Shown here: positions 34,058 to 62,246 of the stretch, one piece after another | How positions within the stretch are numbered: the stretch's first letter is position 1 | Layout: the number at the start of each line of letters is the position of its first letter | Source: Chitinophagales bacterium | Lineage (GTDB): Bacteria > Bacteroidota > Bacteroidia > Chitinophagales > CAIOSU01 | Direction of reading: 5' to 3' | Length of the DNA: 64,000 nucleotides | NCBI GenBank assembly: GCA_034440455.1 | Contig: JAWXCB010000062.1 | Coordinates: 3,624-67,623, forward strand | Notes under the pieces: model-generated | Told to the model about the DNA's origin: nothing | Database searches by the model: none | Seen by the model: only the letters and a program-made list of their open reading frames with translations | Made by a program: the position numbers and the translations under genes

Positions 34058-34098
34058 GTTACGCAATTCGTTAAAAAGGTTATATCATTCACACATTT
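34058..34098 (-). promoter_or_regulatory. Stress-module copy A (box pair only) upstream of the sigma-like gene
   Basis: Gene strand: AAATGTGTGAATGATATAAC-CTTTTTAAC-GAATTGCGTAAC. The boxes are 21 bp apart, as in all other copies. The downstream GGTTTC..CTCACCTTTGTAT part is not conserved at the standard distance (CTCACC occurs at 34014-34019). Confidence 0.7.
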
Positions 34099-34309
34099 TG
34101 GAATTCGGAGATTTTCTTTCAAATGCGGTCAATTGCATTTGAATAGATTCTAAGTATTGTTCGAAATCAACCGTGCTGATTTCTTTTTCAAGAGTAGAAA
34201 GGAACAAAGGTGTTTCGCTTAAATGCTTGTAGAGTTCAGGAAAATCTTTTTGAATAATTGTTGTAACTCTGAAGATTTCATTCATGAGTTTATTTTGCAG
34301 CGGCAGCAT
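34085..34309 (-). CDS. Hypothetical small protein
   Basis: 74-aa ORF whose stop lies inside module copy A. Its start overlaps the stop of the upstream small membrane protein. Confidence 0.4.
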   Translation of the reverse strand: MLPLQNKLMNEIFRVTTIIQKDFPELYKHLSETPLFLSTLEKEISTVDFEQYLESIQMQLTAFERKSPNSKMCE

Positions 34310-34503
34310 TATGCTTCATCTTTTGTTGTGCGCACCAATCCAATGCCGGAGATAAAAAACAGGAGACCGAGCACTCCGAAAACCAGAAGAGCTTTAACAT
34401 CATGCGCACCGCCCGATGTAGTGACGAATGCTATCGCAGTATAAATAAGTCCGCCTATTCCAAGAATAGTAAGGACTGCGCCAAAGACTCTTTTGAGGTT
34501 CAT
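34309..34503 (-). CDS. Small two-TM membrane protein
   Basis: 64 aa with two clear hydrophobic helices (VFGAVLTILGIGGLIYTAIAF and LLVFGVLGLLFFISGIGLV). Confidence 0.55.
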   Translation of the reverse strand: MNLKRVFGAVLTILGIGGLIYTAIAFVTTSGGAHDVKALLVFGVLGLLFFISGIGLVRTTKDEA

Positions 34504-34562
34504 ATTATTTGCAGCAATTTTTTATCACGGTTAGAGAATGAATACTGTCATTCCGGAAAGTG

Positions 34563-35177
34563 TCAGAGTTTAAATGAAAACCCTACGTTGACTACACTCT
34601 TGCCCCAGCCGAACTCGCCATTTACCCCAACCTTCTCGCTGAAGTAGTAACGGACACCGACATGCAGCCCACCGAAAGCCAACGGCACTATTCGCGAGGA
34701 GTTTTCATAGTAAGTGAAAGCGACACCACTGCCCACATTCGCCCCTGCATAGATGTCTAATTTGTCGGAATGAATGTTCTTGCTTGAGTTGTCTGCTATC
34801 AATTGATAGAAGTGGAAGTTGGCTATCATCCCGATGGGCACATTTATTTCGCCTGAATATTTATAATAGAGTTCATCTCTTTTTCCTTTCTTTTCTCCTC
34901 TGGTTCTTCCGCCTACTCCAGTGGTAAATCCAAGCCCCACATATTTATGAATTCCGAATTCCCCTTGGAAATTGATTTGTCCGGTTGAAGGATAATACCA
35001 TCTGTTGAAATCACCATCATGTCTGTAATAGTAATAGTCGTCTATGTGGAAGAATTTTGAGACCCCAAAGCCTAATGACAGCACTCTCGAGTTTCTTTCC
35101 CACGCCTGCGCATGAACAGGATTCGCGTTCAGCAGCAGAATAAATACAATAATCAGATGACACAAAATCTTTTTCAT
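34563..35177 (-). CDS. Outer-membrane beta-barrel protein
   Basis: Signal peptide ending VHAQA and alternating aromatic/Gly-rich strands. Confidence 0.65.
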   Translation of the reverse strand: MKKILCHLIIVFILLLNANPVHAQAWERNSRVLSLGFGVSKFFHIDDYYYYRHDGDFNRWYYPSTGQINFQGEFGIHKYVGLGFTTGVGGRTRGEKKGKRDELYYKYSGEINVPIGMIANFHFYQLIADNSSKNIHSDKLDIYAGANVGSGVAFTYYENSSRIVPLAFGGLHVGVRYYFSEKVGVNGEFGWGKSVVNVGFSFKL

Positions 35178-35213
35178 GAGGAATGTTTTTAGTTTGGATT
35201 ATCAGAAGAGAAT

Positions 35214-35246
35214 AAAAAAAGGCGGGCGCAACGCCCGCCTTTTTTT
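35214..35246 (-). terminator. Strong intrinsic (bidirectional-type) terminator
   Basis: A7 - ggcgggcg caa cgcccgcc - T7: an 8-bp GC stem at 35221-35239 flanked by A and T runs. Confidence 0.85.
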
Positions 35247-35259
35247 GAGAGGTTGTTGC

Positions 35260-35727
35260 TTACTTTTTATTGTCAACCGTCAGGTCTTTGAATGCCTTTC
35301 CAAACTCATCCATGTCGTGATTGAATTCACGCTTGAATGTTTCCCAATCGCTTTGGCTCTTTTCGTAGTTGTCAATTTTGGTACGCATGGCTTTGTTTTG
35401 CTGTTCGAGCGTATCAACCCTTTTAGCATAAACTGCGTCAAGCGTCTTGCCTGAACTTTTCATCTTTTCTCTTACTTCAGCAATGCGCACTTCATTGTCT
35501 CTGATTTTTATATCAGATTCATTCTTGAATGTTTGCCATTCAAATGCTTTAGCTGATTTCTCCTTTTCTGCATCTGCTTTTTGTTGTGCTTCGTTCAAAT
35601 CTTGTTTTGCATCTTTCACATCAGCCTGAGCGGCATCTTCTTTTTGAGCAGATGACTGGCAGCCGGTGAAGATTGTTCCTGCCATCAGCGTGGTTGCCAT
35701 GGCGAGGGTTAAAATTGTTTTTTTCAT
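35260..35727 (-). CDS. Lipoprotein with coiled-coil region
   Basis: Lipobox IFTGC after a signal peptide. The rest is K/E/Q/A-rich and helical. Confidence 0.7.
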   Translation of the reverse strand: MKKTILTLAMATTLMAGTIFTGCQSSAQKEDAAQADVKDAKQDLNEAQQKADAEKEKSAKAFEWQTFKNESDIKIRDNEVRIAEVREKMKSSGKTLDAVYAKRVDTLEQQNKAMRTKIDNYEKSQSDWETFKREFNHDMDEFGKAFKDLTVDNKK

Positions 35728-35788
35728 TATGTTTGTTTTTTATTCCTGCAAGTCTGTGCAGGACAGTTTTCTTTAAATAGAGAACTGC

Positions 35789-35971
35789 TTATGCCCCCAT
35801 GATTTTATGCAACTCCTCTTTTGTTTTGCCTAACTTGATTTGGAGTTTTCCAAGCATTTCGTCTTTTTTGCCTTCAGCAAACAACAAGTCATTGTCTGTT
35901 AATGTTGCAAATTTTTGTTTGAGCTTGCCCTTCTGCTCATCCCAGTTTCCTTTTAGTTCTGTGGTGTTCAT
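35789..35971 (-). CDS. CsbD-family general stress protein
   Basis: 60 aa. LKGNWDEQKGKLKQKFATLTDNDLLFAEGKKDEMLGKLQIKLGKTKEE is the CsbD signature. Confidence 0.85.
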   Translation of the reverse strand: MNTTELKGNWDEQKGKLKQKFATLTDNDLLFAEGKKDEMLGKLQIKLGKTKEELHKIMGA

Positions 35972-35989
35972 AATAGATGGTTTTAAATA

Positions 35990-36005
35990 GTGAAAGAATT
36001 TTCAC
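35990..36005 (-). promoter_or_regulatory. Leader palindrome GTGAAA-N4-TTTCAC (CsbD gene)
   Basis: Perfect 6-bp inverted repeat directly after the TTTGTAT box. The identical element occurs at 39501-39516 and 41440-41455. Confidence 0.6.
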
Positions 36006-36006
36006 A

Positions 36007-36079
36007 ATACAAAAGTGCGGGCTTTAACTATGGAAACCGTTACACAATTCTGTAAAAGAGTTACATCATTCACACATTT
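36007..36079 (-). promoter_or_regulatory. Stress-module copy B (upstream of CsbD gene)
   Basis: Gene strand: AAATGTGTGAATGATGTAAC-N9-GAATTGTGTAAC-GGTTTC-N13-CGCACTTTTGTAT. Box spacing 21, box-to-TTTG spacing 25. Confidence 0.8.
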
Positions 36080-36297
36080 GGAGAAGACTGTTTATGGAGT
36101 TTTTTTTGTTTTAACAATTTCGGCAGGTCTTGTGCAGGTCCGTCATTAGCGCCACTACCTTGAACTCCGGCAATTCCTTTTTTGGAATGAGCAACGCGCG
36201 GAATTTTCTCCGGTAACTTGTTCAGCGTCATACCCGGAGCATTGGGCTGTTCTTCAGCATATCCTCGTCTGATTTTTTTAATTGGTTTTATTTTCAT
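36070..36297 (-). CDS. Hypothetical small basic protein
   Basis: ORF from MKIKPIKKIRRGY, last gene of the Dps-led gene string. Its stop lies inside module copy B. Confidence 0.35.
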   Translation of the reverse strand: MKIKPIKKIRRGYAEEQPNAPGMTLNKLPEKIPRVAHSKKGIAGVQGSGANDGPAQDLPKLLKQKKLHKQSSPNV

Positions 36298-36357
36298 GTT
36301 CTTTATTTTATTTTTTTGAGCTACCGAATTCAAACGCGAATCCTATAAACTCCTATG

Positions 36358-37500
36358 TCATTTTGATTCCCTATCTTTCTTTCTGAATAGTTTTCTCGAA
36401 AAGCGGTTATCCTTTTCTGATTTATCTACCGATTGGATATTAATCGCATTATCTATGGATGGATGCAGCGCCCGGATAAAACCATTTCTCAATACTTCAA
36501 TCATTGCATACCAAATGCGCACATTCGGGTCATCCAGATTGCCGTCTAACGGAATCCGTGTTGCAATCTGATCTTTCTTTTGGTTTTCCAGCAACTCGGC
36601 AGTGGTCCCCACTATTGCCTCCCACATTTTCCGAAAAATATTATCATCCCTGTCTTCTGCGCCCACAACTTTCAGGTCGCTTATTAAAGGCTTTATATAA
36701 CCGGTGAATTGCCCTTGTTCCGATGCCACTTCAGTATAGAGTCCGAAAGTCCCCCTGCTCACATCAATCTTTGCATAGGCTTGAAAAAAATCATTGAGCA
36801 ATACCAGGTTGGTGCTATCAAGTGAAACATTAAGGTCAAAGGTGGGTTTTGAAGCCAGCGGATTGAGTTTCATATTCAGCTTAAAAAACCCCTCATACAC
36901 ATCAGCCGTCATCACTACTACAGCAGGCAACAGGCTGACTGAGTCATATACATTTCTAAGATTTGTTGCCGACATGGATATTGCTGTCATCTCAATGTCA
37001 ACCATTGGTTTGCTGGTGGAATCAATAAATCTGAGCTTGCCGTTTAGCATTTCCATGCGATTGATTTTCAAAGGCATGAAATCTTTCAGCAGTTCGCGAA
37101 AGTCGGCAGTATCCTTTTGCACTTGGGCCGGCTCCACTTTATCAAGCGTAAACCGTACTTCAGGTGAATCAAAAATCAATTCACCCACAATATTCCCGCG
37201 TAGCAAACCCTTCCATTCTACAGAGAGGTCAATTTGCCGTGCGCTCATAAAAGGTGTTTGCTTGCCGGTAGCTGAATCAACCTTATCAATATTAATAGCG
37301 CAGATTTTATAGGCTCCCCGGTAGAGCGCCAGATCAATATCCTCTATATTCCCAGTGTATCCCTTCAGCGTTTTAAGATTTTTGTTGGCAAAATGCAGGA
37401 GAACAAAAGGCAGGCTGATTCGTATTGCCACCAGCAGAACAATCACGGACAGCAAGGCTATTCCTGCTTTTTTTCTTTTAAAAAAATCGGGCAACTTCAT
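36358..37500 (-). CDS. Membrane-anchored protein, DUF748-like
   Basis: 380 aa with an N-terminal TM. The LKGYTGNIEDIDLALYRGAYKI region resembles DUF748. Tentative. Confidence 0.5.
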   Translation of the reverse strand: MKLPDFFKRKKAGIALLSVIVLLVAIRISLPFVLLHFANKNLKTLKGYTGNIEDIDLALYRGAYKICAINIDKVDSATGKQTPFMSARQIDLSVEWKGLLRGNIVGELIFDSPEVRFTLDKVEPAQVQKDTADFRELLKDFMPLKINRMEMLNGKLRFIDSTSKPMVDIEMTAISMSATNLRNVYDSVSLLPAVVVMTADVYEGFFKLNMKLNPLASKPTFDLNVSLDSTNLVLLNDFFQAYAKIDVSRGTFGLYTEVASEQGQFTGYIKPLISDLKVVGAEDRDDNIFRKMWEAIVGTTAELLENQKKDQIATRIPLDGNLDDPNVRIWYAMIEVLRNGFIRALHPSIDNAINIQSVDKSEKDNRFSRKLFRKKDRESK

Positions 37501-37601
37501 TAAATGTTCTTTTATATAGAATAACTCATCCGCTTCAATGTTTTACCAATAAATGATTGAGGAACAAAGTGTCAATTCATTCATAGACTTTTTTTGCTAT
37601 G

Positions 37602-38129
37602 CTACCTGAGCATTGAGAGGTTGAGGGTGTTCTCTTTTTCACTGTAAGTAAACTTGCAGTCACCAAAGCCGGGAGGTTTGAGCTTTGGCTTGAAATTATT
37701 TGAAAATCCATAAGGTTCTTGAGGGATGCCCATGAAATTTCTATCGCATTTTCCATCATTGTTTACATCCTGGTAAAAAGCTATCGCAAACTCGCCATAG
37801 CTGAGGTCTTTTACCTGGGTAGTCAATGTACTCCCATTGGAGTTAAACTTATATCCCTTCAGCCTGTCGGTCTTGCTCAGGAATTTATGTTTTGTCTGGT
37901 AAAAAACTACGTTCACACGTGACTTGGAAGGAGCAAGGTTTGTGAAAATAAGCGTAAGTGGTTTGCGTCCTGTTACTTCAGCCACACTATCAGTTACTTG
38001 TAAAGAATCTTCCGCAATTACATCGTCTGTTTCCGGGAGGCTTACGGGATACTTGCACCCGCTGACAAAAAGCGCGCAGAGTACAATGAGGAAGGTAATT
38101 GCAGGAATAAGTTTTTGCTTTGCTTGCAT
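37602..38129 (-). CDS. DUF2141 domain-containing lipoprotein
   Basis: FYQDVNNDGKCDRNFMGIPQEPYGFSNN is the DUF2141 signature. Lipobox FVSGC. Start taken at the internal Met (38129) after the dps stop. Confidence 0.75.
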   Translation of the reverse strand: MQAKQKLIPAITFLIVLCALFVSGCKYPVSLPETDDVIAEDSLQVTDSVAEVTGRKPLTLIFTNLAPSKSRVNVVFYQTKHKFLSKTDRLKGYKFNSNGSTLTTQVKDLSYGEFAIAFYQDVNNDGKCDRNFMGIPQEPYGFSNNFKPKLKPPGFGDCKFTYSEKENTLNLSMLR

Positions 38130-38143
38130 TTCTTTTTTTTTAA

Positions 38144-38617
38144 TCAACTTAAATATCTTCTCAAAACCCATGCGGTGGTTTCATGCTGCTTCATCAATCC
38201 TGTGAGGAAATCAGCAGTTCCCGCGTCTTTATATTTTTCGCTGCAAGCATCCACGCCTTCACGCAGTTCAACTACAGAAGTTTCATGGTCTTTCAGCAGT
38301 TCCCGAATCATTTCTTTTGAGGAAGGATATTTTCCGGGAGTTTCTTTGATGGTGGATAGTTTTGCAAACTCCTGCATGGTGCCGATGGTTTTGCTTCCTA
38401 ATTTATTGATGCGTTCAGCTACTTCATCAATGGCTTCTTCCAGTTGCTTGTATTGGCTCTCAAAAAGCTTGTGCAACTCCATGAAACTTTCACCTCCCAC
38501 GTTCCAATGAAATTTTCTTGTCTTTACATACAAGGTCATCTGGTTGGACAGCACAGTTGAAAGAAGCGTAGTGACGCGCTCTAAAGTTTTTTCAGAGATA
38601 CCGATATTAGTTTTCAT
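38144..38617 (-). CDS. dps: Dps family DNA starvation/stationary-phase protection protein
   Basis: 157 aa. LYVKTRKFHWNVGGESFMELHKLFESQY ... DEVAERI ... are ferritin-like Dps motifs. Confidence 0.9.
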   Translation of the reverse strand: MKTNIGISEKTLERVTTLLSTVLSNQMTLYVKTRKFHWNVGGESFMELHKLFESQYKQLEEAIDEVAERINKLGSKTIGTMQEFAKLSTIKETPGKYPSSKEMIRELLKDHETSVVELREGVDACSEKYKDAGTADFLTGLMKQHETTAWVLRRYLS

Positions 38618-38646
38618 AGTAGAATGTATTTAGTGAAGTTTTGAGA

Positions 38647-38719
38647 ATACAAAGTTGAACCCATGCCTTGTGGAAAGCGTTACACAATTGCAGGAAAGAG
38701 TTACATGATTCACACATTT
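38647..38719 (-). promoter_or_regulatory. Stress-module copy C (upstream of dps)
   Basis: Gene strand: AAATGTGTGAATCATGTAAC-N9-CAATTGTGTAAC-GCTTTC-N13-GTTCAACTTTGTAT. Spacings 21 and 25. Confidence 0.8.
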
Positions 38720-38998
38720 GTAAAAATTTTGTTTAGTGGAAGTCTTTCAAGAAACCGGTTAACGGGTAACAGGCTCGCGTACCTTTTCGTTGGTCATAGA
38801 AAGAAGATTGGAAAATTCCCATGTTCCTGATTTATCCGTTTAGCCAACCTGACAAACCGGGAAAGACTCCACTAAACAAAACTTTGTGACATTTTATTAT
38901 AGGCTTGGTGTGAAATACTGCTGAAAAATTAAAGTGAGGAGCAAAGCGGTGACTTGCGTACGGTTACCCCTCACTTTAATCTGATGATTAATCAGCAA

Positions 38999-39463
38999 TC
39001 AATTTTTCTTATCAGTCCGCTTGTTAGCATTCTGATTTTGGTTACCGCTCTTGTTGGAGATTTCATCTTTGTTTGCATCACGAACGGTGCTTTCACGCTG
39101 ACTTCCTTTCTGATATTCTTGCTGGCAATTGCGCTCATCTGAAGTAGCCTTGTCACCGTTCTGCTGCTTTTTGCCCGGATACTCATTCGGAGTTTTCTGC
39201 TGATCTTCATCCTCCTCAGCAACTGTTGTATCCTCTCTTTGGCGATTACGCTGGTCTGAAGGAGCCTTGTCACCATTCTGCTGTTTTTTACCGGGAAATT
39301 CATTCGGAGTATCTGTTTGTTCCTCATTTTCATCAACAATTGAAGATGATTTTTCTGTCGGAGCGCCCTTTTTTCTTTGATTGTCGCGATTGAACTGACC
39401 GCCTTGATTTTGCTGACCACTCTGGTTACCTGTAACCTCTTGGTCTTTTTGATTTTTTGACAT
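38999..39463 (-). CDS. Intrinsically disordered hydrophilic protein with internal repeat (hydrophilin-like)
   Basis: Start MSKNQKDQ at 39463. 154 aa rich in Q/N/K/E/D/G. Tandem TPNE(F/Y)PGKKQQNGDKA(P/T)SD(Q/E)RN repeat. Confidence 0.65.
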   Translation of the reverse strand: MSKNQKDQEVTGNQSGQQNQGGQFNRDNQRKKGAPTEKSSSIVDENEEQTDTPNEFPGKKQQNGDKAPSDQRNRQREDTTVAEEDEDQQKTPNEYPGKKQQNGDKATSDERNCQQEYQKGSQRESTVRDANKDEISNKSGNQNQNANKRTDKKN

Positions 39464-39500
39464 TTCGTTTAATTTTTTTTGCCGCGACTGGCGGAACAGT

Positions 39501-39516
39501 GTGAAAGAATTTTCAC
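39501..39516 (-). promoter_or_regulatory. Leader palindrome GTGAAA-N4-TTTCAC (hydrophilin 1)
   Basis: Identical to 35990-36005. Followed in the leader by a short CCGC-N5-GCGG hairpin (39482-39494). Confidence 0.6.
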
Positions 39517-39517
39517 G

Positions 39518-39590
39518 ATACAAAGGTGAGTGCTTAGTTGTCAGAAACTGTTATACAATTCTTAAATAGAATTGCATCATTCACACATTT
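39518..39590 (-). promoter_or_regulatory. Stress-module copy D (upstream of hydrophilin 1)
   Basis: Gene strand: AAATGTGTGAATGATGCAAT-N9-GAATTGTATAAC-AGTTTC-N13-CTCACCTTTGTAT. Spacings 21 and 25. Confidence 0.8.
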
Positions 39591-39613
39591 TTCGATTTGC
39601 TGAAAAAATTAAT

Positions 39614-40834
39614 TCAGGTATTTAAAAGCCCATAAATCGTGTAGGCTGTCAGCAGCAGCGTCAGTAAGATGGCGCATACGCTAATCACAGGAATGTTCTT
39701 GATATTGCCCGGGATGCGGAAAGGGCGTTTCAAATTTTTATTTGTAATCCGCAGAACGATAACGGAAGTATTCACCAATAGGAAGGTGATGAAAATGGAA
39801 AAATTAGCAATGAGCGCAACGGTTTCAATTTTCCCTATCAGGGAAAAGGCACTTGTAACCAGCAAGATGAGCAACAGGGCAGGCACAGGCGTTTGCCGTG
39901 AAGCCCATACCCATGAAAACCATTTCATAAAAGAAACTTCCTTTGCCATGCTTAAAATAACACGGGAGCTGCCCATCATATTTGAAAGAATGGTGTTTGA
40001 AGTAGAGAACAGCGCGATGATCACGATAACGAGAGCGCCTGTTTTTCCAAACCTGTTGCTCACAATATCAGCTAAGGGGCTATCCGACTCACTTAGTTCT
40101 TGCCAGGGAATGGCGCTCACGGCACAAATGGCAACCAACGTGTAAACAACCATGACGATTGCGCTTGCAATGAATAACGCTTTGGGAATATTCTTCTCGG
40201 GCTTTTTTGTTTCTTCAGCGAGCTTCACTATTTCTTCAAAACCGAGATAAGCAAAGTAACTTAACGCAGCCGCAGCGAGTACACCGTTGAATCCGGAGGG
40301 AGGCAACTCTAAATAATCTACTTTTCCTAAATCAGGAAAGGCTGCATAGATGACAAAAAGCAATCCGCCTGTTTCGATAACGGTAAAAATAATGTTGATG
40401 ATGGATGATTGCCTGATGCCGCTGATATTAACCAGAAAAACCAACACAAGGATTCCCGGAGCAACCGCCAGCAGGGGCAGTTCAATCAATCGGGTGAAAT
40501 AGCCTGCAAACCCCAGTGACACAGTTGCCCCGCTGATGATGCCGTTTAAGGAAATGATAAAGCCAAGAATAATTCCCGCTTTCTTTCCTAAGGCATTTTT
40601 AGCATATACATATTCCCCGCCCGCCTTCGGGAAAGCAGCGCTCATTTCTGCATAAGAAAAAGCGGATAGCAATGCGGTGACAGATGCAATGAGAAAAGCA
40701 AGCCATATCATGTTGCCTCCAAATCCGGCCACCTTGCCCACCAGCGCATAAATGCCTGCTCCCAGAATGGAACCCACGCCAAAGAAAACGCATTCGGCAA
40801 GTCCTAAGGTCCTTTTCAGTTTTTGAGTAGGCAT
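39614..40834 (-). CDS. APC-family amino acid permease
   Basis: 406 aa with about 12 TM segments. N-terminal LGLAECVFFGVGSILGAGIY is typical of the APC superfamily. Confidence 0.8.
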   Translation of the reverse strand: MPTQKLKRTLGLAECVFFGVGSILGAGIYALVGKVAGFGGNMIWLAFLIASVTALLSAFSYAEMSAAFPKAGGEYVYAKNALGKKAGIILGFIISLNGIISGATVSLGFAGYFTRLIELPLLAVAPGILVLVFLVNISGIRQSSIINIIFTVIETGGLLFVIYAAFPDLGKVDYLELPPSGFNGVLAAAALSYFAYLGFEEIVKLAEETKKPEKNIPKALFIASAIVMVVYTLVAICAVSAIPWQELSESDSPLADIVSNRFGKTGALVIVIIALFSTSNTILSNMMGSSRVILSMAKEVSFMKWFSWVWASRQTPVPALLLILLVTSAFSLIGKIETVALIANFSIFITFLLVNTSVIVLRITNKNLKRPFRIPGNIKNIPVISVCAILLTLLLTAYTIYGLLNT

Positions 40835-40924
40835 TTTTTTTGGAAAGGGAAATTTCCTTTCATTCTTTTATTTTATGACGGATACGGCAGTGTTGAAGGC
40901 ACAGGAGCGCAGTAATTTTTCAGG

Positions 40925-40996
40925 TTCTAAAAGTGAGCGTATTCCTTCATAAACTTTCACACTATTCTAAAATAAAGTTGCATCATTCACACATCT
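40925..40996 (-). promoter_or_regulatory. Stress-module copy E (upstream of APC permease), more divergent
   Basis: Distal box GATGTGTGAATGATGCAAC and proximal GAATAGTGTGAA are 21 bp apart. The core reads CTCACTTTTAG with 24-nt spacing. Confidence 0.65.
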
Positions 40997-41070
40997 TGTC
41001 AGCAGGTTTTCTCTGACTGTTTTGTTGCCGAACATTCGTGTGCGCCCGCTGGATTGACGGAGTACCGACT

Positions 41071-41098
41071 AAAAAAAATCCCCGCGAGAGCAGGGATT
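41071..41098 (-). terminator. Intrinsic terminator after hydrophilin 2 gene
   Basis: Minus strand: AATCCCTGC-TCTC-GCGGGGATT (9-bp stem with one G-U pair) followed by T8. Confidence 0.8.
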
Positions 41099-41121
41099 CT
41101 TGAGTAAATAGTTTTACCTGC

Positions 41122-41403
41122 TTACTCTTTATGATTTTTATTACCTGTTTTGTTCTCCTTCTGCTTTGAATCAGAACCTGTTCTTCCTGCACTGCCTGCA
41201 CGCTCTTGGGTATTCTTAATATCCGTACCGGCTTTAGCTTGCGGTGAAGTCGCAAGCTGACGTTGCTGGTCGCCTTGTTGCTTACCCTGATTTGGAGTTG
41301 GGTTTTTAGCGTTCGTTTCCTTTTTGCGGTCACCATGTGCTGATGATTGATTTGACTTGCTGCCGATTTGCAGATTGCCTTGGTCTTTTTGTTTGTCTTT
41401 CAT
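41122..41403 (-). CDS. Intrinsically disordered hydrophilic protein (hydrophilin-like), paralogous 5' region to 38999..39463
   Basis: 93 aa starting MKDKQKDQGN, rich in Q/K/N/G/S/T with no hydrophobic core. Promoter and leader are nearly identical to copy D. Confidence 0.65.
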   Translation of the reverse strand: MKDKQKDQGNLQIGSKSNQSSAHGDRKKETNAKNPTPNQGKQQGDQQRQLATSPQAKAGTDIKNTQERAGSAGRTGSDSKQKENKTGNKNHKE

Positions 41404-41439
41404 TTTTTGAATTTAAATTCCCGCTACTGGCGGAACAGC

Positions 41440-41455
41440 GTGAAAGAATTTTCAC
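41440..41455 (-). promoter_or_regulatory. Leader palindrome GTGAAA-N4-TTTCAC (hydrophilin 2)
   Basis: Identical to the other two. Followed by a CCGC-N5-GCGG hairpin (41421-41433). Confidence 0.6.
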
Positions 41456-41456
41456 A

Positions 41457-41529
41457 ATACAAAGGTGAGCGTACTATTATCAGAAACCGTTATACAATTC
41501 TTGAAAAGAGTTGCATCATTCACACATTT
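41457..41529 (-). promoter_or_regulatory. Stress-module copy F (upstream of hydrophilin 2)
   Basis: Gene strand: AAATGTGTGAATGATGCAAC-TCTTTTCAA-GAATTGTATAAC-GGTTTC-N13-CTCACCTTTGTAT. Spacings 21 and 25. Confidence 0.8.
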
Positions 41530-41563
41530 CAACGCACACGATTTTTTGTACTTCAACACGTTG

Positions 41564-42001
41564 TTATTTGCTTGTTGAACCGGAATCTTTCATCGTTGTA
41601 ATTCTTCCTGAAAGGTCAACATGGTCGCCTTCTTTCATCCACATCTCCGTTCCATTTTTTTTTACGATGGTTCCATCGCGCTTCACTTTTGTGCTATTAC
41701 TCATAATGATACCTTTTTTCAAAAATTTCATTGTGCCTCCGAATATCAGCATCATTTTGCCGTTCAGCATTATCACGCCATCAGGATGTGACTTTATCTT
41801 TTCGCCCGGTGCGTTTTTAACAGGGCTGTTTTGCATCTTGTCCTCCGTATTGGAATTCGTGTTTTTTGGAGTATTATCAAAATCAGGAGGGATGGTTTTG
41901 ATAAAGGAGTCAGGCGGGAGAGAATTTATTAAGGAGTCGGCTTGAGCATTAACGCACAACGTGATTGCAGTGGCTGCAAATGCGAAGATTAGTTTTTTCA
42001 T
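41564..42001 (-). CDS. Hypothetical secreted protein
   Basis: 145 aa with signal peptide MKKLIFAFAATAITLCVNAQA. Repeated DG(V/T)I..NGK/DGTIVKKNGTEMWMKEGD-type segments. Confidence 0.65.
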   Translation of the reverse strand: MKKLIFAFAATAITLCVNAQADSLINSLPPDSFIKTIPPDFDNTPKNTNSNTEDKMQNSPVKNAPGEKIKSHPDGVIMLNGKMMLIFGGTMKFLKKGIIMSNSTKVKRDGTIVKKNGTEMWMKEGDHVDLSGRITTMKDSGSTSK

Positions 42002-42034
42002 TTGGTTTGAGTTTTCATGTAAAATATTTTGCGC

Positions 42035-42107
42035 TTACAAATATGCTTCTATTGATTCCGGAAAGCGTTATACTATTCTGATGAAGAGTTACATCATTCA
42101 CACATTT
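42035..42107 (-). promoter_or_regulatory. Stress-module copy G (upstream of secreted 145-aa protein)
   Basis: Gene strand: AAATGTGTGAATGATGTAAC-N9-GAATAGTATAAC-GCTTTC-N13-AGCATATTTGTAA. Spacings 21 and 25. Confidence 0.75.
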
Positions 42108-42135
42108 TTCAAAGTGATAAATGAACAGCATGCGG

Positions 42136-42208
42136 GAATGTGTGAATCATGTAACTCTTTCCCGCAATTGTGTAACAGTTGTGAAAGCAGGCGGCAGCAC
42201 CTTTGTAT
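42136..42208 (+). promoter_or_regulatory. Stress-module copy H (only + strand copy; upstream of lipoprotein and OM barrel genes)
   Basis: GAATGTGTGAATCATGTAAC-N9-CAATTGTGTAAC-AGTTGT-N13-CAGCACCTTTGTAT. Spacings 21 and 25. It lies back to back with copy G, 28 bp apart. Confidence 0.8.
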
Positions 42209-42224
42209 TGATATGAATATTCAG

Positions 42225-44051: not shown

Positions 44052-44052
44052 C

Positions 44053-53171: not shown

Positions 53172-53244
53172 GTACAAAGGTGAGTCCATCTCTGATGATT
53201 ACCGTTACACAATTACGGGAAAGAGTTACATCATTCACACATTT
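53172..53244 (-). promoter_or_regulatory. Stress-module copy I (upstream of YtxH operon)
   Basis: Gene strand: AAATGTGTGAATGATGTAAC-N9-GTAATTGTGTAAC-GGTAAT-N13-GACTCACCTTTGTAC. Spacings 21 and 25. Confidence 0.8.
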
Positions 53245-56062: not shown

Positions 56063-59000
56063 TTATTGCAATCCCAGCTTGAATATTTTCCGGTATTCTG
56101 TATGAGCATCATAATCTAATTCGAGAAGATAAATTCCACCCGGCAAAGTTTTATCAAGGGAAAGGATTTTCTTGTTTTCACCATTTTGAAATTTAATTGT
56201 TTCCGTTGCAACAGTTTGTCCAAGTGAATTTAAAATGCGGAACCTCGCGGTTCCTTCATTTTCGGATGTACAATCAAGCATCAATTCATCGGTAAATGGA
56301 TTGGGATAAATTTTTAAATCACCAAAAAGATGTGGAGGAGAAACAACTTCATCTTCAATCAATTCACTTCCTTCCATTTTTGCCGCGCTGTTTGTGATAG
56401 TAAAAGAAACTGTCTCGCTGACTCCTGCTGTGCCGCTGCCATTCGTAGCTGAATAGGGCATGCCTTGAAGCGTATAGTAGCCGGGGTTTGGATTCCACGG
56501 AGTGTAAGTTGCGCCATTATTAAAATCGCTATTGATGGAATAAGGCGCGTAGTTTTCCGTTTGGATAATGCTTCTATTTAACGTAAATCTTACGCTGCCT
56601 AACGGCTCGCCACAGGCATTTGCTCTTACGCTGAAATTTCCAAGAATAGATTTGTTAATCACCATTCCGTTAATCAGTTGACTTATCTCTGTGCCATTTG
56701 ATGCACGAACCAATGTGAATGAAACAACTTCAGGCTGCGTGCAGAACTGATTACAATCAGGGTCAGTCTGGTGCACGCAAACGCCATTGTTACAAATCTC
56801 AATCGTACACGAATTGTCATCATTGCAATCTATGGGAGCGCTGATGCATTGATTGCTGATGCAATCATCCACTGTGCATGCATTGTTGTCATTGCATTGC
56901 GCGCGGTCTGTGCTGCATCCCGATGGTGTCGCCACTACGGAAAAGGTTACAGTCAGACTAACGCCTGTAGTTCCATTGCCATTAAAGGATGAATAGGGCG
57001 TTCCGGTGAGCGTGTAATTTCCGGGTGCAGGGTTCCACGGAATATAAGTAGCGCCATCATTGTAATCACCTTTCAGGGAATAGGGCGCATAGTTTTCCGT
57101 GCGTACAATACTTCCGTTTAAAATAAATCTTACACTCCCGACAGGCGCATCACACATGTCAGTCCTGATGCTGAAACTGACGATGGATGATTTATCAATC
57201 ACCATTCCATTGACAAGTTCACTTATCTGTGTTCCATTTGAGGCGTTAACTAAAACGAAAGCAGTCACTTCCGCCTGTGTGCAAGATTCGTTACAATCGG
57301 GATTGTGCTGATGTGCGCAGACGCCATTGTTGCAGGCATCAATCGTGCAGGCATCCGCATCATCGCAATTTAAAAGCGTGTTGGCGCATTGCCCGCTGAC
57401 GCAATTATCAACGGTGCAGGGATTGTTGTCATCGCATTGCAGATTGCCCGTGCATCCGGGAGACTGCTGCTCCGCCACGGTGAAGTTGACAATTTCGCTG
57501 ATGCCTGTTGTGCCGCCACCGCCTGAACCGGAATATGGCGTAGCGGTGAGCGTATAATTTCCGGGTGAAGGATTCCACGGAGCAAAGTTTCCGTTTGAAT
57601 CTCCATGGATGGAATAGGGAATTCCATTTTCAGTGCGCAGGATATTTCCATTCAGCGTAAAGCGCACGCTGCCCACGGGGTTGTTGCAAACATCTGCTCT
57701 TATGCTGAAGTTGCCAATGGATAAAAGGTCAATCTCTGTTCCGTTAACAAGCGTTCCGATTTCTGAGCCGTCCGTATGCACGAGTGTAAAAGAAACTACT
57801 TCCAATTGGATGCATGAACCATTGCAGCCGGGGTCCGGCTGATAGGTGCATACGCCACTATTGCAGCCATCAATCGTGCATGGATTTGCATCATCACAAT
57901 TTAATGTTGCACACAAATCACTGCTTGCCCCTGCCGTAAAGTAAACGGTGCGCACCCTTGTGGTTCCTTCAATCTCAGCCCTGATGCTATGACTGCCGGG
58001 AGTGAAACTGGCAGGATTATAGTTGCCGTTATTGTCGCCAAAAACGCTGAAGGGAGCCGTGTTCTCAAAAGAGGTTTGTTGTCCATCATAAAACATTCTT
58101 ACAGTCGCCTGCACTCCGGGACCATCCACAACAACATTAATTCCTGTGGAATTGCTAAAGGTCATGTTATCGGTGATTTCAAACAGTATCGCATTGTTTG
58201 ATGCGTTGACGAGCCAAAACCGGATGGCATTCGATGAGGAGGCGCAGGGCGTGATGCCAGTATTGCCTCCCGCGCATATTCCGCAGGAATCAGTTTGCGC
58301 GTTTCCGTTGCATACGTTGTTGCAATCCAATGTGCCGTTGCATGTTTGGCAACTGCCATCATCCACGGTGGCACTTGGATTATAGTTTGTGGCATTGGGG
58401 TCGGTGCAACCAGATATTACGTTAACAGAATTTCCTGCAAGCTGCGCAAGGCGGGTGTAAACGGGTTCATAAGCTCTGTACCAATTATCAGAGGTGTTGC
58501 GCTGGTCGCAACAAGAAATATAAACGCCTACCCCTGCATTGTATGGTTGCGCGGCATTGAAGACGGTTTCAGCCTTGGCAATATCATTGGTTTGAAAACC
58601 TCCGGTCATTTCGGAAGCGTAACCTGTTGTTATTTGTTGTGTGAATTTCAACACTTCGGTTCGAATCCTGTTATTGAATGAATTCGTGCTTTCCTGGAAT
58701 GAGAGGAACTGAATCAAATCAGAATTGTAATGATCTGACCATGGGTTTTGTGATGTGTTGTTGTGCATTCCCCGCAGGTTATCAGAATCAATGCTTTTCA
58801 GGTATGCGTATAAATCATTGATTTGGCTGGTTCTTCCGTTGGGGTATTCTTCTCTGTCCCAAATTATATTTCCGGCAACCGGGGAAAATTTCTGCACGAG
58901 GAACGACATGATTTGCTTTTGCGTGGCAGCAGTATATTTATCGTGGGTTTCCTTTTCAGAAAGCAAGATGTGCATGATGCCTTTGCCATTCCATAATGTA

Positions 59001-59371
59001 TTCACCCAATAGTTTGACATCGCCACCCATTGGTCAACTTTCACATTATCAAATCCGCTGTTCTGATTATTATTGATGTAGGGAGTTGTGGTGATGCCGC
59101 CATCCGTTCCGTTTGTAGTGCAATACAACGTGTTTACGCCTTTGCTTCTAAGCCAATTCATCCAGGCATAATCATTAAAGTGAAAAGGCGTTTCCGGAGA
59201 ATTAGCTTCAACAATTTTAGCCATAGTTCCATCGCTCCATTTCAACACGCTATTGTCCACTGTAAGATTTAATCCTGTTGCTGTTTTGGAAAACAGAAAA
59301 AAATAAATGAGCAGGCAGAAACCTGCATGAGTAGTGAATTCCGATAGGAATAATTTTATTGTAGTTTTCAT
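56063..59371 (-). CDS. Large secreted multidomain protein with Cys-rich modules, four beta-sandwich repeats and T9SS sorting domain
   Basis: 1102 aa with a signal/anchor. Repeated C..DDN.CT.D.C..G.C modules alternate with F.LV.A..G..I..L.NG..I......FS.R......GSVRF.LN....TEN.APYS domains. C-terminal KIYPNPFTDEL...GGIYLLELDY Por tail. Confidence 0.8.
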   Translation of the reverse strand: MKTTIKLFLSEFTTHAGFCLLIYFFLFSKTATGLNLTVDNSVLKWSDGTMAKIVEANSPETPFHFNDYAWMNWLRSKGVNTLYCTTNGTDGGITTTPYINNNQNSGFDNVKVDQWVAMSNYWVNTLWNGKGIMHILLSEKETHDKYTAATQKQIMSFLVQKFSPVAGNIIWDREEYPNGRTSQINDLYAYLKSIDSDNLRGMHNNTSQNPWSDHYNSDLIQFLSFQESTNSFNNRIRTEVLKFTQQITTGYASEMTGGFQTNDIAKAETVFNAAQPYNAGVGVYISCCDQRNTSDNWYRAYEPVYTRLAQLAGNSVNVISGCTDPNATNYNPSATVDDGSCQTCNGTLDCNNVCNGNAQTDSCGICAGGNTGITPCASSSNAIRFWLVNASNNAILFEITDNMTFSNSTGINVVVDGPGVQATVRMFYDGQQTSFENTAPFSVFGDNNGNYNPASFTPGSHSIRAEIEGTTRVRTVYFTAGASSDLCATLNCDDANPCTIDGCNSGVCTYQPDPGCNGSCIQLEVVSFTLVHTDGSEIGTLVNGTEIDLLSIGNFSIRADVCNNPVGSVRFTLNGNILRTENGIPYSIHGDSNGNFAPWNPSPGNYTLTATPYSGSGGGGTTGISEIVNFTVAEQQSPGCTGNLQCDDNNPCTVDNCVSGQCANTLLNCDDADACTIDACNNGVCAHQHNPDCNESCTQAEVTAFVLVNASNGTQISELVNGMVIDKSSIVSFSIRTDMCDAPVGSVRFILNGSIVRTENYAPYSLKGDYNDGATYIPWNPAPGNYTLTGTPYSSFNGNGTTGVSLTVTFSVVATPSGCSTDRAQCNDNNACTVDDCISNQCISAPIDCNDDNSCTIEICNNGVCVHQTDPDCNQFCTQPEVVSFTLVRASNGTEISQLINGMVINKSILGNFSVRANACGEPLGSVRFTLNRSIIQTENYAPYSINSDFNNGATYTPWNPNPGYYTLQGMPYSATNGSGTAGVSETVSFTITNSAAKMEGSELIEDEVVSPPHLFGDLKIYPNPFTDELMLDCTSENEGTARFRILNSLGQTVATETIKFQNGENKKILSLDKTLPGGIYLLELDYDAHTEYRKIFKLGLQ
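56390..58220 (-). repeat. Tandem coding repeats (period about 530-545 bp) inside the 1102-aa gene
   Basis: DNA blocks such as ...tagttttccgt...aaatcttac.ct.cc recur near 56541, 57083 and 57613. At protein level there are three full units of about 180 aa and one partial unit. Confidence 0.7.
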
Positions 59372-59391
59372 TGTTTGATTTAGGAATTACT

Positions 59392-59464
59392 CAACAAAGG
59401 TGAGTCCACTAATTCCCAATAGTGTTACACGATTCTTGAAATGAATTGCATGATTCACACATTT
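59392..59464 (-). promoter_or_regulatory. Stress-module copy J (upstream of the 1102-aa T9SS protein)
   Basis: Gene strand: AAATGTGTGAATCATGCAAT-N9-GAATCGTGTAAC-ACTATT-N13-GACTCACCTTTGTTG. Spacings 21 and 25. Confidence 0.75.
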
Positions 59465-59628
59465 CAGAAGAGCATTGCGCAGTTGCGCAACGACTATTAC
59501 GCCAATTAGAATAGGCTAAGAGAAATATGTTCTCCTTCTAAAATTCTCATAAAGAGGAATTTAATTTCCGTTTTGAAGAAAACAATTAGGGAGGCTAATT
59601 GGCTACAGAGCGATAAGAGTTACATCTT

Positions 59629-60882
59629 TCACACAATTTGTGAAGATGAAACGGGCGTATCTTTTCCAAAGAGAAGGGAATAAAATGGTTTGCCGATGCC
59701 TGTTTTTACAAGAAAAAATAAACCAACGCAATACAGCGTGCTGAACAGAATTACCGAATAACAGACTGATTGGATAATGATGCCGTCAGGATGTCCCTGC
59801 TGCAAAGGAAGCAAGGCGATAACGGCTGCGCCAAGTCCTTTGGGTATCATGATAGAAAGCACCGTTTTGTCAAGCAGCGGTGTTTGCTTGGAAATGACGA
59901 ACCTCACTACCACGATTCTCACGATAAACAGAACGAACGTAATCCATGCGCCCCAAAACAGCCAGTCAAAGCGGTTGATTTGAATGCTGATGCCGATGAA
60001 CACAAAAAAGAAGGTGCGCAGGAGAAAAACGATCTGACCAAAAAAGTCCTTTTCGCCAGGCGGCAATATGATGCTCACTTTAGGAACGAAAGGCTCTAAA
60101 ATTTTTGGCTCGAAATATTCCAGATTGCCAATGGCTATGCCGAATGAAAGCGCGGTCAACGGACCGCTGAAATGCAAATACTCCGTAATTCCATAGAGGA
60201 TAAAAAGAAATGCAGGCGTTGAAAATTTTGTTTCCTTCAGCGTGGGAAATCTGTTGATGATGAACGCCCACAGGAATGCGCCACCGATGCCAATCAGCAG
60301 CGCGATTACCAGGGAGGCGATGAATTGCGCAATCACCACATCTGCCTGCATCTGCCCGGTAATCATTAATCCTAAGATGCTCAACGGGATGGCAAGCGTG
60401 AAAATATCAGATTCTGCTGATTCAATAATCAGCGTGGTGGATGTTTTTGCCTGCACTGCTATCTTTTTTACCAAGCCCACCACAACGGCTGATGAAGTGC
60501 CACCGAGAGTAGAACCAATAAACAGGCAGGTTAAAATCGGCAATCCGAAAATCAATTTGCAAAGCAAAAACACCGCAATCATTGTTGTGATAAAACCGAC
60601 AAATGTGATGGCTGCTGAGTCTTTAAAAGATTCTTTTATCTCCGCGATTTTCAAATCCGTTCCGCTTTCAAACAGGATGAAGATGAGCACGAGGTTGCTG
60701 AACAGGGAGCCGAATTTTCCAAATGAAGCGGGGTCGAAAAGATGAAAAACGGGACCTAAAAGAATTCCGATAAGCATCAGTCCGAGCACATCGGGAATGC
60801 TTCTGCGCTCAAACACCCCACTGAGGAAATGCCCGCAGAAAATAAAAAGTCCGATGATGATAATGATGACGGGCGTTGGCAT
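59629..60882 (-). CDS. Cation:proton antiporter (Na+/H+ exchanger family)
   Basis: 417 aa with about 12 TM segments. N-terminal GLMLIGILLGP and FILFESG are typical of the CPA1/2 families. Confidence 0.75.
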   Translation of the reverse strand: MPTPVIIIIIGLFIFCGHFLSGVFERRSIPDVLGLMLIGILLGPVFHLFDPASFGKFGSLFSNLVLIFILFESGTDLKIAEIKESFKDSAAITFVGFITTMIAVFLLCKLIFGLPILTCLFIGSTLGGTSSAVVVGLVKKIAVQAKTSTTLIIESAESDIFTLAIPLSILGLMITGQMQADVVIAQFIASLVIALLIGIGGAFLWAFIINRFPTLKETKFSTPAFLFILYGITEYLHFSGPLTALSFGIAIGNLEYFEPKILEPFVPKVSIILPPGEKDFFGQIVFLLRTFFFVFIGISIQINRFDWLFWGAWITFVLFIVRIVVVRFVISKQTPLLDKTVLSIMIPKGLGAAVIALLPLQQGHPDGIIIQSVCYSVILFSTLYCVGLFFLVKTGIGKPFYSLLFGKDTPVSSSQIV

Positions 60883-60885
60883 TTT

Positions 60886-61230
60886 TTATCCTTGCGGGAT
60901 TTGAGTTTTTTCAGAAGCAGGTTTGCCATTGGAATAATAACGGTAATAGCTGTTCAATCGGTTTTTGAGTTGATAGAATCTAAAAACGCCTATCACCAAA
61001 AGGAGGATGCTGAGGGCAAGAGAGAGGTAGCCTATCCACTTTATATTATCGAAGCCCTGCAATTGTAAAAACGCGATTCCGCCCAGCAGCAGGTAGAGTG
61101 AAGTGCGGAGGTAAGACAGCAGCGTTCTTTCATTCGCCAATTTGGTGCGTTGCAGCGCCAGATAATCGCGGAGGATAATTTCTTCCTTGTTTTCAAAATC
61201 AGATCCGAAACTGATGAAGCGCTTTACCAT
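60886..61230 (-). CDS. DUF202 (YidH-like) membrane protein
   Basis: LANERTLLSYLRTSL motif and two more TM helices. Its stop is 4 nt before the antiporter start. Confidence 0.7.
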   Translation of the reverse strand: MVKRFISFGSDFENKEEIILRDYLALQRTKLANERTLLSYLRTSLYLLLGGIAFLQLQGFDNIKWIGYLSLALSILLLVIGVFRFYQLKNRLNSYYRYYSNGKPASEKTQIPQG

Positions 61231-61322
61231 GGTGAATAAGCGATGATAAGTAAGTTTTGAGATTCAGGCAAGGCTGTATGGAATTTTGCTTTTTTAAAAA
61301 CAGCAATAAGTTGCTTGAATAC

Positions 61323-61353
61323 AAAACCCGTCCACTTGAGGAGAACGGGTTTT
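61323..61353 (-). terminator. Intrinsic terminator after OM barrel gene 61396..62148
   Basis: aaaacccgt (61323-61331) pairs with acgggtttt (61345-61353). On the minus strand the stem runs into TTTTGTATT. Confidence 0.55.
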
Positions 61354-61395
61354 GCATTTATCTAAGCAACTACTTTAATTACCCAAGCGATTTTA

Positions 61396-62148
61396 TCAGA
61401 ATAAAAATGACAATCCAGCATAGAGTGAATAAGTCTTTACATGCGTACGGTCAAGCACATAATATTGGTCTGTAGTTTTTGTCCGGCTGTCGTCACTAAT
61501 ATCAATTAAGCCGTAAACACCTCGAAACCCAAGGTCGAATTTCACCTGATGCCCGAATTGAAGCCCGGCACCGTAAGCAAATCCAAGGTCGCCTCCTCTC
61601 ACTGCCAGAACAGCCACGTCTTCATTCCCATCCACAGTTTTAATATCTGAGCCTACATTAATTCCGAATTGGGGACCAACGACTACATTCAAGTTGACCA
61701 CTTTTGTTTTACCGGTGTTCAGCGCAAACAATAAGGGAATATTGATGTAGTGGAGTTTGACTGTATAGTCCAAATCCTGATCACGGTACTTTTGCGCAAT
61801 GGAACTATAAATAAGTTCGCCTTGTAATCCAATGTGCTCTTGGAAATTTACCCCTATCACGGCTCCGAATCCGTAGCCGAAGCTAAAATCGCCATCCACT
61901 TCACCACCTCCTGAATCCTTCAGTTGAAAGGAAGAGAAGGTCGGCATAAATCTAAAACCGATTTCCATCATGGGGAAGTCAGCATCAGATGCGCTGGCAT
62001 TTTTCCCTTCACCCTTGGGGCTATCATTATTTTGTTGAATTTGAATGTTTTGTTGATTCTCTTGCGCCTTTACAGGGTTTAAAGACAATACAACCATTCC
62101 GGCACTCAGTAGAACCACTGCGCACAGGTAATTTTTTGTGTTTTTCAT
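61396..62148 (-). CDS. Outer-membrane beta-barrel (porin-family) protein
   Basis: Signal peptide ending VKAQE, a Q/N-rich linker, then barrel strands. C-terminal YAGLSFLF. Confidence 0.75.
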   Translation of the reverse strand: MKNTKNYLCAVVLLSAGMVVLSLNPVKAQENQQNIQIQQNNDSPKGEGKNASASDADFPMMEIGFRFMPTFSSFQLKDSGGGEVDGDFSFGYGFGAVIGVNFQEHIGLQGELIYSSIAQKYRDQDLDYTVKLHYINIPLLFALNTGKTKVVNLNVVVGPQFGINVGSDIKTVDGNEDVAVLAVRGGDLGFAYGAGLQFGHQVKFDLGFRGVYGLIDISDDSRTKTTDQYYVLDRTHVKTYSLYAGLSFLF

Positions 62149-62173
62149 TTTGTTTTTTATTTTAAAATTTGTG

Positions 62174-62246
62174 ATACAAAGGTGAAGCTCTCTATGCTGC
62201 TAACCGTTACACAATTGCAGATAAGATTTACATGATTCACACATGA
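62174..62246 (-). promoter_or_regulatory. Stress-module copy K (upstream of OM barrel gene)
   Basis: Gene strand: TCATGTGTGAATCATGTAAA-N9-CAATTGTGTAAC-GGTTAG-N13-CTTCACCTTTGTAT. Spacings 21 and 25. Confidence 0.75.

Follow-up and report, generated by a model that had tools for sequence, protein, structure and literature searches.

A rigidly spaced two-site promoter cassette in a Chitinophagales bacterium recurs across Bacteroidota and is linked to a small AraC-type regulator gene

Results

We analyzed a stretch of 64,000 nucleotides (the window) from a Chitinophagales bacterium of the phylum Bacteroidota (GenBank assembly GCA_034440455.1, contig JAWXCB010000062.1, positions 3,624 to 67,623 of the forward strand), in which a 73-nt promoter-like module containing two direct-repeat boxes precedes a series of transcription units. 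An earlier reading of the letters alone, here called the original prediction, had described 11 copies of this module and proposed that they define a general-stress regulon. A degenerate search for the box pair across the 64-kb window returned exactly 11 matches, of which ten are on the minus strand and one (42136-42208) is on the plus strand, and no copy in positions 1-34000. With a 73-nt weight matrix trained on 130 instances from other genomes only, the 11 copies scored 39-81 bits and the rest of the 64 kb no more than 8 bits, while five shuffles of the window peaked at approximately -20 bits; the predicted positions and strands were thus recovered by an independent matrix as the only matches above 8 bits. 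The predicted geometry was recovered as well. The box-to-box distance is 21 bp in 11 of 11 copies, the gap from the AAC of the proximal box to TTTG is 25 nt in 9 of the 10 copies originally counted as full and 24 nt in the permease copy, and eight copies sit within 34058-42208, matching the 8.2 kb first described. The distance from TTTG to the start codon had been placed at 20-95 nt, which holds for ten copies (24-93 nt) and fails for the lipoprotein open reading frame (ORF) at 42213 (8 nt). Information content among the 11 copies is limited to positions -3 to approximately +79, counted from the T of TGTGTGAAT, and the flanks are unrelated.

The module copies and the genes listed behind them are described here from the lowest coordinates upward and lie on the minus strand, except for the eighth copy and its genes. 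The first copy (34026-34098; 44.8 bits; predicted transcription start site (TSS) ~34024) comprises site 1 at 34078-34095, site 2 at 34057-34074 and a degenerate -7 box, AAAATTAG, at 34029-34036. It had been taken for a box pair only; given that AAAATTAG stands at the exact canonical -7 spacing and keeps the three most conserved bases, all 11 copies in the window may be complete promoters. The gene behind it (33451-33996) encodes a 181-aa protein resembling extracytoplasmic function (ECF) sigma factors. This protein has no Pfam hit and only sub-threshold NCBIfam sigma hits. Its AlphaFold2 model (predicted local distance difference test score 81, predicted template modelling score 0.76) has AlgU, SigW, SigK and sigmaE region 2 as its top Foldseek hits. 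By this predicted structure it is a highly divergent ECF-sigma fold (sigma2 plus sigma4), so that the sigma-like label stands at the level of the fold. Its family has only approximately 10 detectable homologs, one of which (P0005) sits in an operon behind a module, and the 181-aa protein looks like a member of the regulon, that is, a target and not the recognising factor.

The second copy (36007-36079; 80.6 bits; -7 box CACTTTTG; predicted TSS ~36005) precedes a CsbD gene (35789-35971, Pfam CsbD) and probably also drives genes for a 155-aa lipoprotein (35260-35727) and a 204-aa protein (34563-35177) together with two small ORFs. The family of the 155-aa lipoprotein recurs near modules in 11 of the loci listed in the comparative scan below. 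The third copy (38647-38719; 78.2 bits; predicted TSS ~38645) stands before genes for Dps (38144-38617), a DUF2141 protein (37602-38129) and a DUF748 protein (36358-37500), as assigned by Pfam and gene calls. Two copies precede genes for hydrophilic proteins: the fourth (39518-39590; 70.4 bits; predicted TSS ~39516) a 154-aa hydrophilic repeat protein (38999-39463) and the sixth (41457-41529; 77.4 bits; predicted TSS ~41455) a 93-aa protein (41122-41403). Both proteins had been labeled hydrophilins; they are charged and of low complexity and have no family hits in Pfam or NCBIfam scans. Between them lies the fifth and weakest copy (40924-40996; 39.2 bits), with the proximal box AATAGTGTGAA and a spacing shorter by 1 bp, upstream of an APC amino-acid permease gene (39614-40834, Pfam AA_permease_2).

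The gene for the 154-aa protein contains a duplicated unit of approximately 117 nt (39123-39342, minus strand). Between its terminator and the dps module, positions 38755-38864 (minus strand) match Atu_At1, a small RNA family of Rhizobiales, over the full length of the Rfam model at 64.4 bits against a gathering threshold of 60, which is unexpected in Bacteroidota. Atu_At1 was absent from ten other module loci that were scanned.

The seventh and eighth copies are divergent. The seventh (42035-42107; 70.2 bits; predicted TSS ~42033) precedes a gene for a secreted DUF6799 protein (41564-42001, Pfam), and the eighth (42136-42208, plus strand; 73.2 bits; predicted TSS ~42210) precedes the 57-aa lipoprotein ORF (42213-42386, lipobox LISC) and an outer membrane protein (OMP) barrel gene (42399-43025, Pfam), both on the plus strand. 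The MlaE, ABC and MlaD genes at 43197-45608 probably belong to the same unit, and Mla genes recur near modules in other species. The ninth copy (53172-53244; 78.5 bits; predicted TSS ~53170) stands before genes for YtxH (52854-53135, Pfam YtxH), a holin-like 113-aa protein (~52278-52616) and a 138-aa protein (51850-52266), and these three families are found together again at other module loci. A fragment of an AbiEii-like nucleotidyltransferase gene (53324-53947, minus strand) adjoins this module.

The tenth copy (59392-59464; 74.1 bits; predicted TSS ~59390) precedes a gene for a 1102-aa protein sorted by the type IX secretion system (T9SS; 56063-59371, Por_Secre_tail), within which three repeats of approximately 540 nt occupy 56451-57904 (minus strand). 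An orphan half-site of the distal type, ATTGTGTGAAAGATGTAACTCTT, lies at 59615-59637 on the minus strand, 174 bp upstream of this copy and overlapping the stop codon of a Na+/H+ exchanger gene. It scores 25.7 bits with a sub-matrix of the distal site (shuffle maximum 8.9), is accompanied by neither a proximal box nor a -7 box, and may represent either an auxiliary site or the decayed remnant of a module. The eleventh copy (62174-62246; 69.9 bits; predicted TSS ~62172) serves an OMP barrel gene (61396-62148, Pfam) and possibly also drives the DUF202 gene (60886-61230) and the Na+/H+ exchanger gene (59629-60882). Most gene labels of the original prediction (CsbD, Dps, permease, YtxH, OMP barrels, T9SS protein and secreted protein) were confirmed by Pfam and NCBIfam. 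A DDE_Tnp_1/DUF4372 transposase gene (63048-63995, plus strand) marks the edge of this island. Approximately 4 kb past the right end of the window, a twelfth module (62.4 bits; locus L134, 5774-5846, plus strand) lies upstream of an OmpA/TSP_3 gene, which means that the island continues past the window end, across the insertion sequence (IS)-type transposase.

Species-representative genomes (approximately 1.2 x 10^12 sites) were scanned with a pattern of the two boxes only, comprising 19 fixed and 3 two-fold positions, and at least 120 stretches matched, compared to approximately 1 expected by chance. Almost all of the matches listed are in Bacteroidota, among them Bacteroidales/Marinilabiliales-type families, Chitinophagaceae, Saprospiraceae, Flavobacteriales, Sphingobacteriales and Cytophagales; the exceptions among them are one Chlorobiales metagenome-assembled genome (MAG) and one short 'Syntrophales' MAG contig. 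From the matches listed we assembled a comparative set of 132 instances in genomes of approximately 110 other Bacteroidota species, which share the 21-bp box spacing, whether fixed by the search pattern or conserved. Outside the search pattern, these instances conserve AA before TGTGTG, TCTT after the distal box, and A-C-C-T-T-T-G at +60 to +66 with no length variation. The bases A60, C62, T63, T64, T65 and G66 form a -7 box at an invariant distance in approximately 130 of 132 instances, with A60, T63 and T64 each present in at least 117.

The position of the module relative to genes is conserved as well. A co-oriented ORF begins within 110 nt in 92 of 114 usable instances. For the divergent direction the count is 17 of 114, and random positions give 44%. 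The median distance from TTTG to the ATG of the co-oriented ORF is 42 nt in the instances from other species. The claim that the module lies directly upstream of, and in the same orientation as, the genes it serves therefore extends beyond the window: in a comparative form of the check that had been proposed, orientation and start distance are fixed across species. The scatter characteristic of a miniature inverted-repeat transposable element (MITE), which had been named as the outcome that would count against a regulon, was not seen in the comparative scan, and viral contigs contained only 3 matches in 2.9 million. Recurring downstream families include CsbD, Dps, YtxH, small membrane proteins of the lmo0937 and Thivi_2564 types, OMP barrels, a cupin of approximately 116 aa, Big_5/ice-binding lipoproteins, a secreted 'PPWGPxGY' family, OmpA/glycine-zipper lipoproteins, fatty-acid desaturase and ECF sigma. 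Judged from these alignments, the module is a promoter type spread across the phylum Bacteroidota and not a mobile repeat. Its regulon appears to bring together protective and envelope genes throughout the phylum, in the manner of a stress or quiescence regulon; the label 'general stress' is taken from the cargo only.

The boxes, AATnnTGTAAC, are direct repeats, and the repeat unit is AATnnTGTAACnCTT. A CRP-like palindrome, TGTGA-N6-TCACA, was considered and dropped by eye, as the boxes are direct and not inverted repeats. The sigma-A -7 box of Bacteroidota, TAnnTTTG, spans -12 to -5 relative to mapped starts in Flavobacterium (PMC9723704). From its sequence and placement, the downstream element of the module, (C/T)AnnTTTG, is this same -7 box. 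Setting it at -12 to -5 puts the predicted TSS approximately 5 nt after the G of TTTG and the two 18-bp sites at approximately -71 to -54 (TGTGTGAATnATGTAACT) and -50 to -33 (nnnnnnAATTGTGTAACn). Relative to this predicted TSS, the proximal site meets or overlaps the -35/-33 region, and the -35 element is poor. A canonical sigma-A promoter carries a -33 TTG approximately 19 bp upstream of the -7 box; no TTG is present at that position in the 132 instances or the window copies, where positions 37-39 read C/T, A/G and C. The 132 instances have a weak cTTTc 15 nt upstream of the -7 box. We rejected GGTTTC as a -33 element, since it is only 15 nt from the -7 box; the same nCTT also follows the distal box, so that GGTTTC more probably belongs to the repeat unit.

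Many module transcripts would begin with a hairpin at predicted +1 to +16, of the form GTGAA-N6-TTCAC or GTGAAA-N4-TTTCAC (in the window at, for example, 39500-39516, 41439-41455 and 35989-36005, minus strand). An exact 5-bp stem with a 6-nt loop is found in 44 of 354 instances, compared to 2-8 in slid controls, and compensatory variants of the stem occur (GTAAT/ATTAC, GTGAT/ATCAC and G-U wobbles). This 5' hairpin may be an mRNA-stabilising stem, and it lends indirect support to the predicted TSS. The fourth and sixth copies share a two-hairpin leader, in which GTGAAA/TTTCAC is followed by CCGC-CAGTC-GCGG. In the form CCGC-CAGNN-GCGG, the second hairpin is present in six leaders (39470-39498 and 41410-41437 on the minus strand of the window, and loci L039, L056, L076 and L107), before unrelated genes that encode hydrophilic proteins, CsbD, a lipoprotein and a 279-aa protein related to Big_5 lipoproteins. 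It has no Rfam match and is a candidate cis-regulatory leader. Gathering and permissive Rfam scans returned no family over any module or leader.

Three ORFs downstream of modules encode small AraC-type proteins. All-against-all clustering of every ORF in 120 listed loci ranked this family, which we call HMA-AraC, as the most common neighbor of the module, with homologs in 34 loci, followed by a cupin (24), PAS kinases (17), the AI-2E transporter (12) and YtxH (11). As the 34 loci had been selected by the motif, we performed a motif-blind test in which metagenomes were searched with an alignment of the regulator protein only. For 81 AraC genes the sequence reached far enough downstream; a full module (>20 bits) lies at the 3' end of 62 of them (77%), a near-obligate linkage between regulator gene and module. 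In 51 of the 81, the last 6 nt of the gene, stop codon included, are the first 6 nt of the distal box, with TGA forming bases 4-6 of TGTGTGAAT; likewise, most such genes at the module loci end in KRRxxLE(D/N)(V/M) with TGA inside TGTGTGAAT. The 80 metagenome loci contain 120 modules, and the most common first genes behind them encode cupin (29), lmo0937 (8), a radical-SAM/B12 protein (7) and CsbD (5).

The regulator is approximately 185 aa long, with Pfam HTH_18 at residues 106-174, and its sequence matches in the PDB are AraC-type domains. The AlphaFold2 model has a confident N-terminal beta-alpha-beta-beta-alpha-beta domain and an AraC DNA-binding domain. Foldseek relates the C-terminus to AraT, YesN, MarA, Rns and ToxT, and the N-terminus to CopZ, Atx1 and GolB. 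One subtype has an invariant metal-loop motif, M-V-C-x-R-C, which reads C/S-x-R-C in the other; the conserved CxxC or SxxC loop of this HMA-like domain suggests, speculatively, redox or metal sensing. The cupin encoded behind the regulator-embedded module (loci L014, L017, L059 and L115, and 29 metagenome loci) is a stand-alone protein of 116-130 aa with weak AraC_binding similarity. In classical AraC the cupin is within the same polypeptide, and the stand-alone cupin here therefore looks like a split arrangement, with a possible role for the cupin as a co-regulator.

For the common AraC subtype, autoregulation was rejected, as a co-oriented module lies in the 500 nt upstream of only 4 of 61 genes. 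Only the paralog of the type found at locus L078 looks autoregulated from its surroundings: three L078-like homologs, found by a protein search that ignored the motif, are accompanied by 5-6 modules per 20 kb, one of them just upstream of the regulator gene. Neighborhoods of this type carry a variant motif, nTGTGAAT/nCGTGAAT followed by AGTTATGTAAC. In loci L130, L132 and L133 (10.5-16.9 kb), the L078-type gene is followed by genes for a conserved HisKA/HATPase kinase (approximately 302 aa), a 972-aa CheB/CheR-PAS protein and a 183-aa protein, and this arrangement may be an upstream signaling module.

Two further features of the window lie apart from the modules. A carotenoid cluster (27694-31420, plus strand) with genes for a phytoene desaturase-type oxidase and a lycopene cyclase is located immediately upstream of the island and adjoins a gene for a MerR/B12-binding regulator of the light-sensing CarH/LitR type. 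The AI-2E transporter gene (48923-50116, minus strand) has no module directly upstream; in 12 other species among the listed loci, a member of its family lies no more than 8 kb from a module.

Discussion

On balance, we favor the view that each copy is an activator-dependent sigma-A promoter, likely read by the HMA-AraC regulator. We infer binding, activation, transcription starts and inducing conditions from the architecture and gene linkage described above. A dimer or two protomers of HMA-AraC would bind the two direct-repeat sites, and the promoter-proximal protomer would replace the missing -33 contact and recruit sigma-A RNA polymerase. The second recognition helix (YSSVAHLSxQFK), which is conserved, would read the conserved TGTAAC, and the first helix, which varies more, would read the upstream sub-site, which is likewise more variable. 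The variant motif of L078-type neighborhoods agrees with this assignment of helices to sub-sites, in a way that is suggestive only.

Several observations weigh against HMA-AraC as the reader. No homolog was found by tblastn in the 64-kb window (E > 0.4) or in the next 10 kb to its right. Of the two sub-sites that a two-HTH (helix-turn-helix) protomer should contact, only one is conserved in the proximal half-site, and the first HTH of the AlphaFold2 model, at residues 83-100, has low confidence. Linkage is not binding, and the AraC gene could be a mere member of the island. With regard to the sigma-A assignment, 9 of the 11 window copies have C as the first base of the -7 box, giving CAnnTTTG and not TAnnTTTG.

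A second possibility, which we consider rather unlikely, keeps the sigma-A promoter and has the boxes bound by a different regulator, for example one of the LytTR or OmpR type fed by nearby PAS kinases, with HMA-AraC as a co-located member of the regulon. Direct repeats with 21-bp phasing would also fit LytTR-type sites, whose geometry (two direct repeats of approximately 9 bp, approximately 12 bp apart, ahead of a weak -35 element) is compatible, and genes for PAS/HisKA kinases, CheB/CheR-PAS proteins and receiver domains recur near modules. The window itself holds 11 modules and no AraC gene. However, no other DNA-binding family is enriched in the listed neighborhoods; no LytTR-like family is among the 25 most frequent neighbor clusters, the domain scan having covered some of the neighbors. 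The receiver proteins, at approximately 144 aa, have no evident output domain, and co-membership hardly explains why 77% of AraC genes found without the motif end in a module.

Recognition by an alternative sigma factor is very improbable in our view. The candidate would be an ECF sigma, either the 181-aa protein or one of the GFO_1088/PG0214 type (loci L111 and L065), with TGTAAC as the -35 element and the CTTTG region as the -10 element. Although ECF -35 elements often contain AAC, and ECF-like genes stand behind modules in the window and in loci L129, L111 and L065 as autoregulation would predict, the conserved downstream element is a sigma-A -7 box, and it lies 22 nt after AAC, compared to an ECF spacer of approximately 16-17 nt ahead of a CGT-type -10 element; no conservation is seen 16-18 nt after AAC. 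An ECF promoter was ruled out on this spacing. It would also leave the second identical box 21 bp upstream unexplained, and the approximately 10 homologs of the 181-aa protein contrast with a module found across the phylum. That the module is a dispersed MITE-like selfish repeat or a structured RNA element has next to no credibility: near-identical copies do cluster in approximately 30 kb adjoining the IS-type transposase, but the flanks are not conserved, a repeat finder detected no terminal inverted repeats in the 11 copies, orientation and start-codon distance are fixed, viral contigs are nearly devoid of matches, and the boxes are direct repeats, not complementary, over which Rfam places no family, so that both readings are effectively excluded.

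The activator-dependent sigma-A promoter that we favor has its closest parallels in the AraC/XylS family. At araI1-I2 of PBAD, as at Pm with XylS and rhaBAD with RhaS, two direct-repeat half-sites are phased by approximately 21 bp, that is, two turns. In class II sites of this family, as in the module, the proximal site lies at the -35 region without a good -35 element, with a footprint of approximately -71 to -33, and the candidate reader of the module likewise has a two-HTH AraC DNA-binding domain. The module differs in having a core promoter of the Bacteroidota -7 type, a candidate regulator with an HMA/ferredoxin-like N-terminus in place of a cupin (a stand-alone small cupin being its most common target), a regulator stop codon inside the regulator's own target site, and a regulon of stress and envelope genes instead of a catabolic operon. 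MarA, SoxS and Rob are also small AraC-type activators that serve dispersed stress genes from asymmetric sites at fixed, helix-face-dependent positions. Mar boxes, however, are single 20-bp sites bound by monomers, whereas the module has a pair of phased sites and its candidate regulator carries an additional N-terminal domain. With the sigma-A promoter of Bacteroidota the module shares the -7 element, and its start-codon distance fits mapped 5' untranslated region lengths (PMC9723704); it departs from that promoter in lacking the -33 TTG and in the first -7 base.

The original prediction had compared the regulon to those of SigB and EcfG. The resemblance is functional: SigB, EcfG/PhyR and module regulons have CsbD, Dps, YtxH, hydrophilic or LEA-like proteins and envelope proteins in common, and all have many dispersed promoters with one rigid signature. 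It does not extend to mechanism, as SigB and EcfG/PhyR are alternative-sigma systems controlled by partner switching and the module likely combines a housekeeping -7 box with upstream activator sites. No RsbV/W or PhyR/NepR was found among the annotated window genes or the enriched neighbor families, and the evidence gives no support for placing the module among the alternative-sigma stress systems. To our knowledge, no RpoS, SigB or EcfG equivalent is known for Bacteroidota, although no search aimed at these was made. A literature search yielded no description of the motif or regulon in the papers it covered, in agreement with the original prediction, and the 73-bp cassette is not among the sigma motifs SM1-6 described in a TSS atlas of F. 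psychrophilum. As far as this search shows, the phylum-wide cassette, the combination of HMA-AraC with a separately encoded cupin target, and the placement of a stop codon in the operator are new.

The general stress response of Bacteroidota is poorly understood. Some of the dominant bacteria of gut, soil, freshwater and marine habitats belong to this phylum. We speculate, as a tentative and somewhat doubtful extension, that the cassette and HMA-AraC form the core of a general stress or quiescence response of Bacteroidota, with a redox- or metal-sensing 'split AraC' whose ancestral cupin is now encoded apart as a target with possible feedback, self-contained propagating regulator units and a post-transcriptional layer from the shared 5' hairpin leader. 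The idea of self-contained units follows from the stop codon embedded in the operator of the next gene, an unusual arrangement that makes a regulator gene and its target site one physical unit. Any genome can be searched for the 73-bp signature, and this, together with a named family of candidate regulators, opens the question to experiment; carriers in culture include Maribellus, Ancylomarina, Draconibacterium and Deminuibacter. The module would also be an inducible promoter part, ready for use in Bacteroidota, for which few tools of this kind exist.

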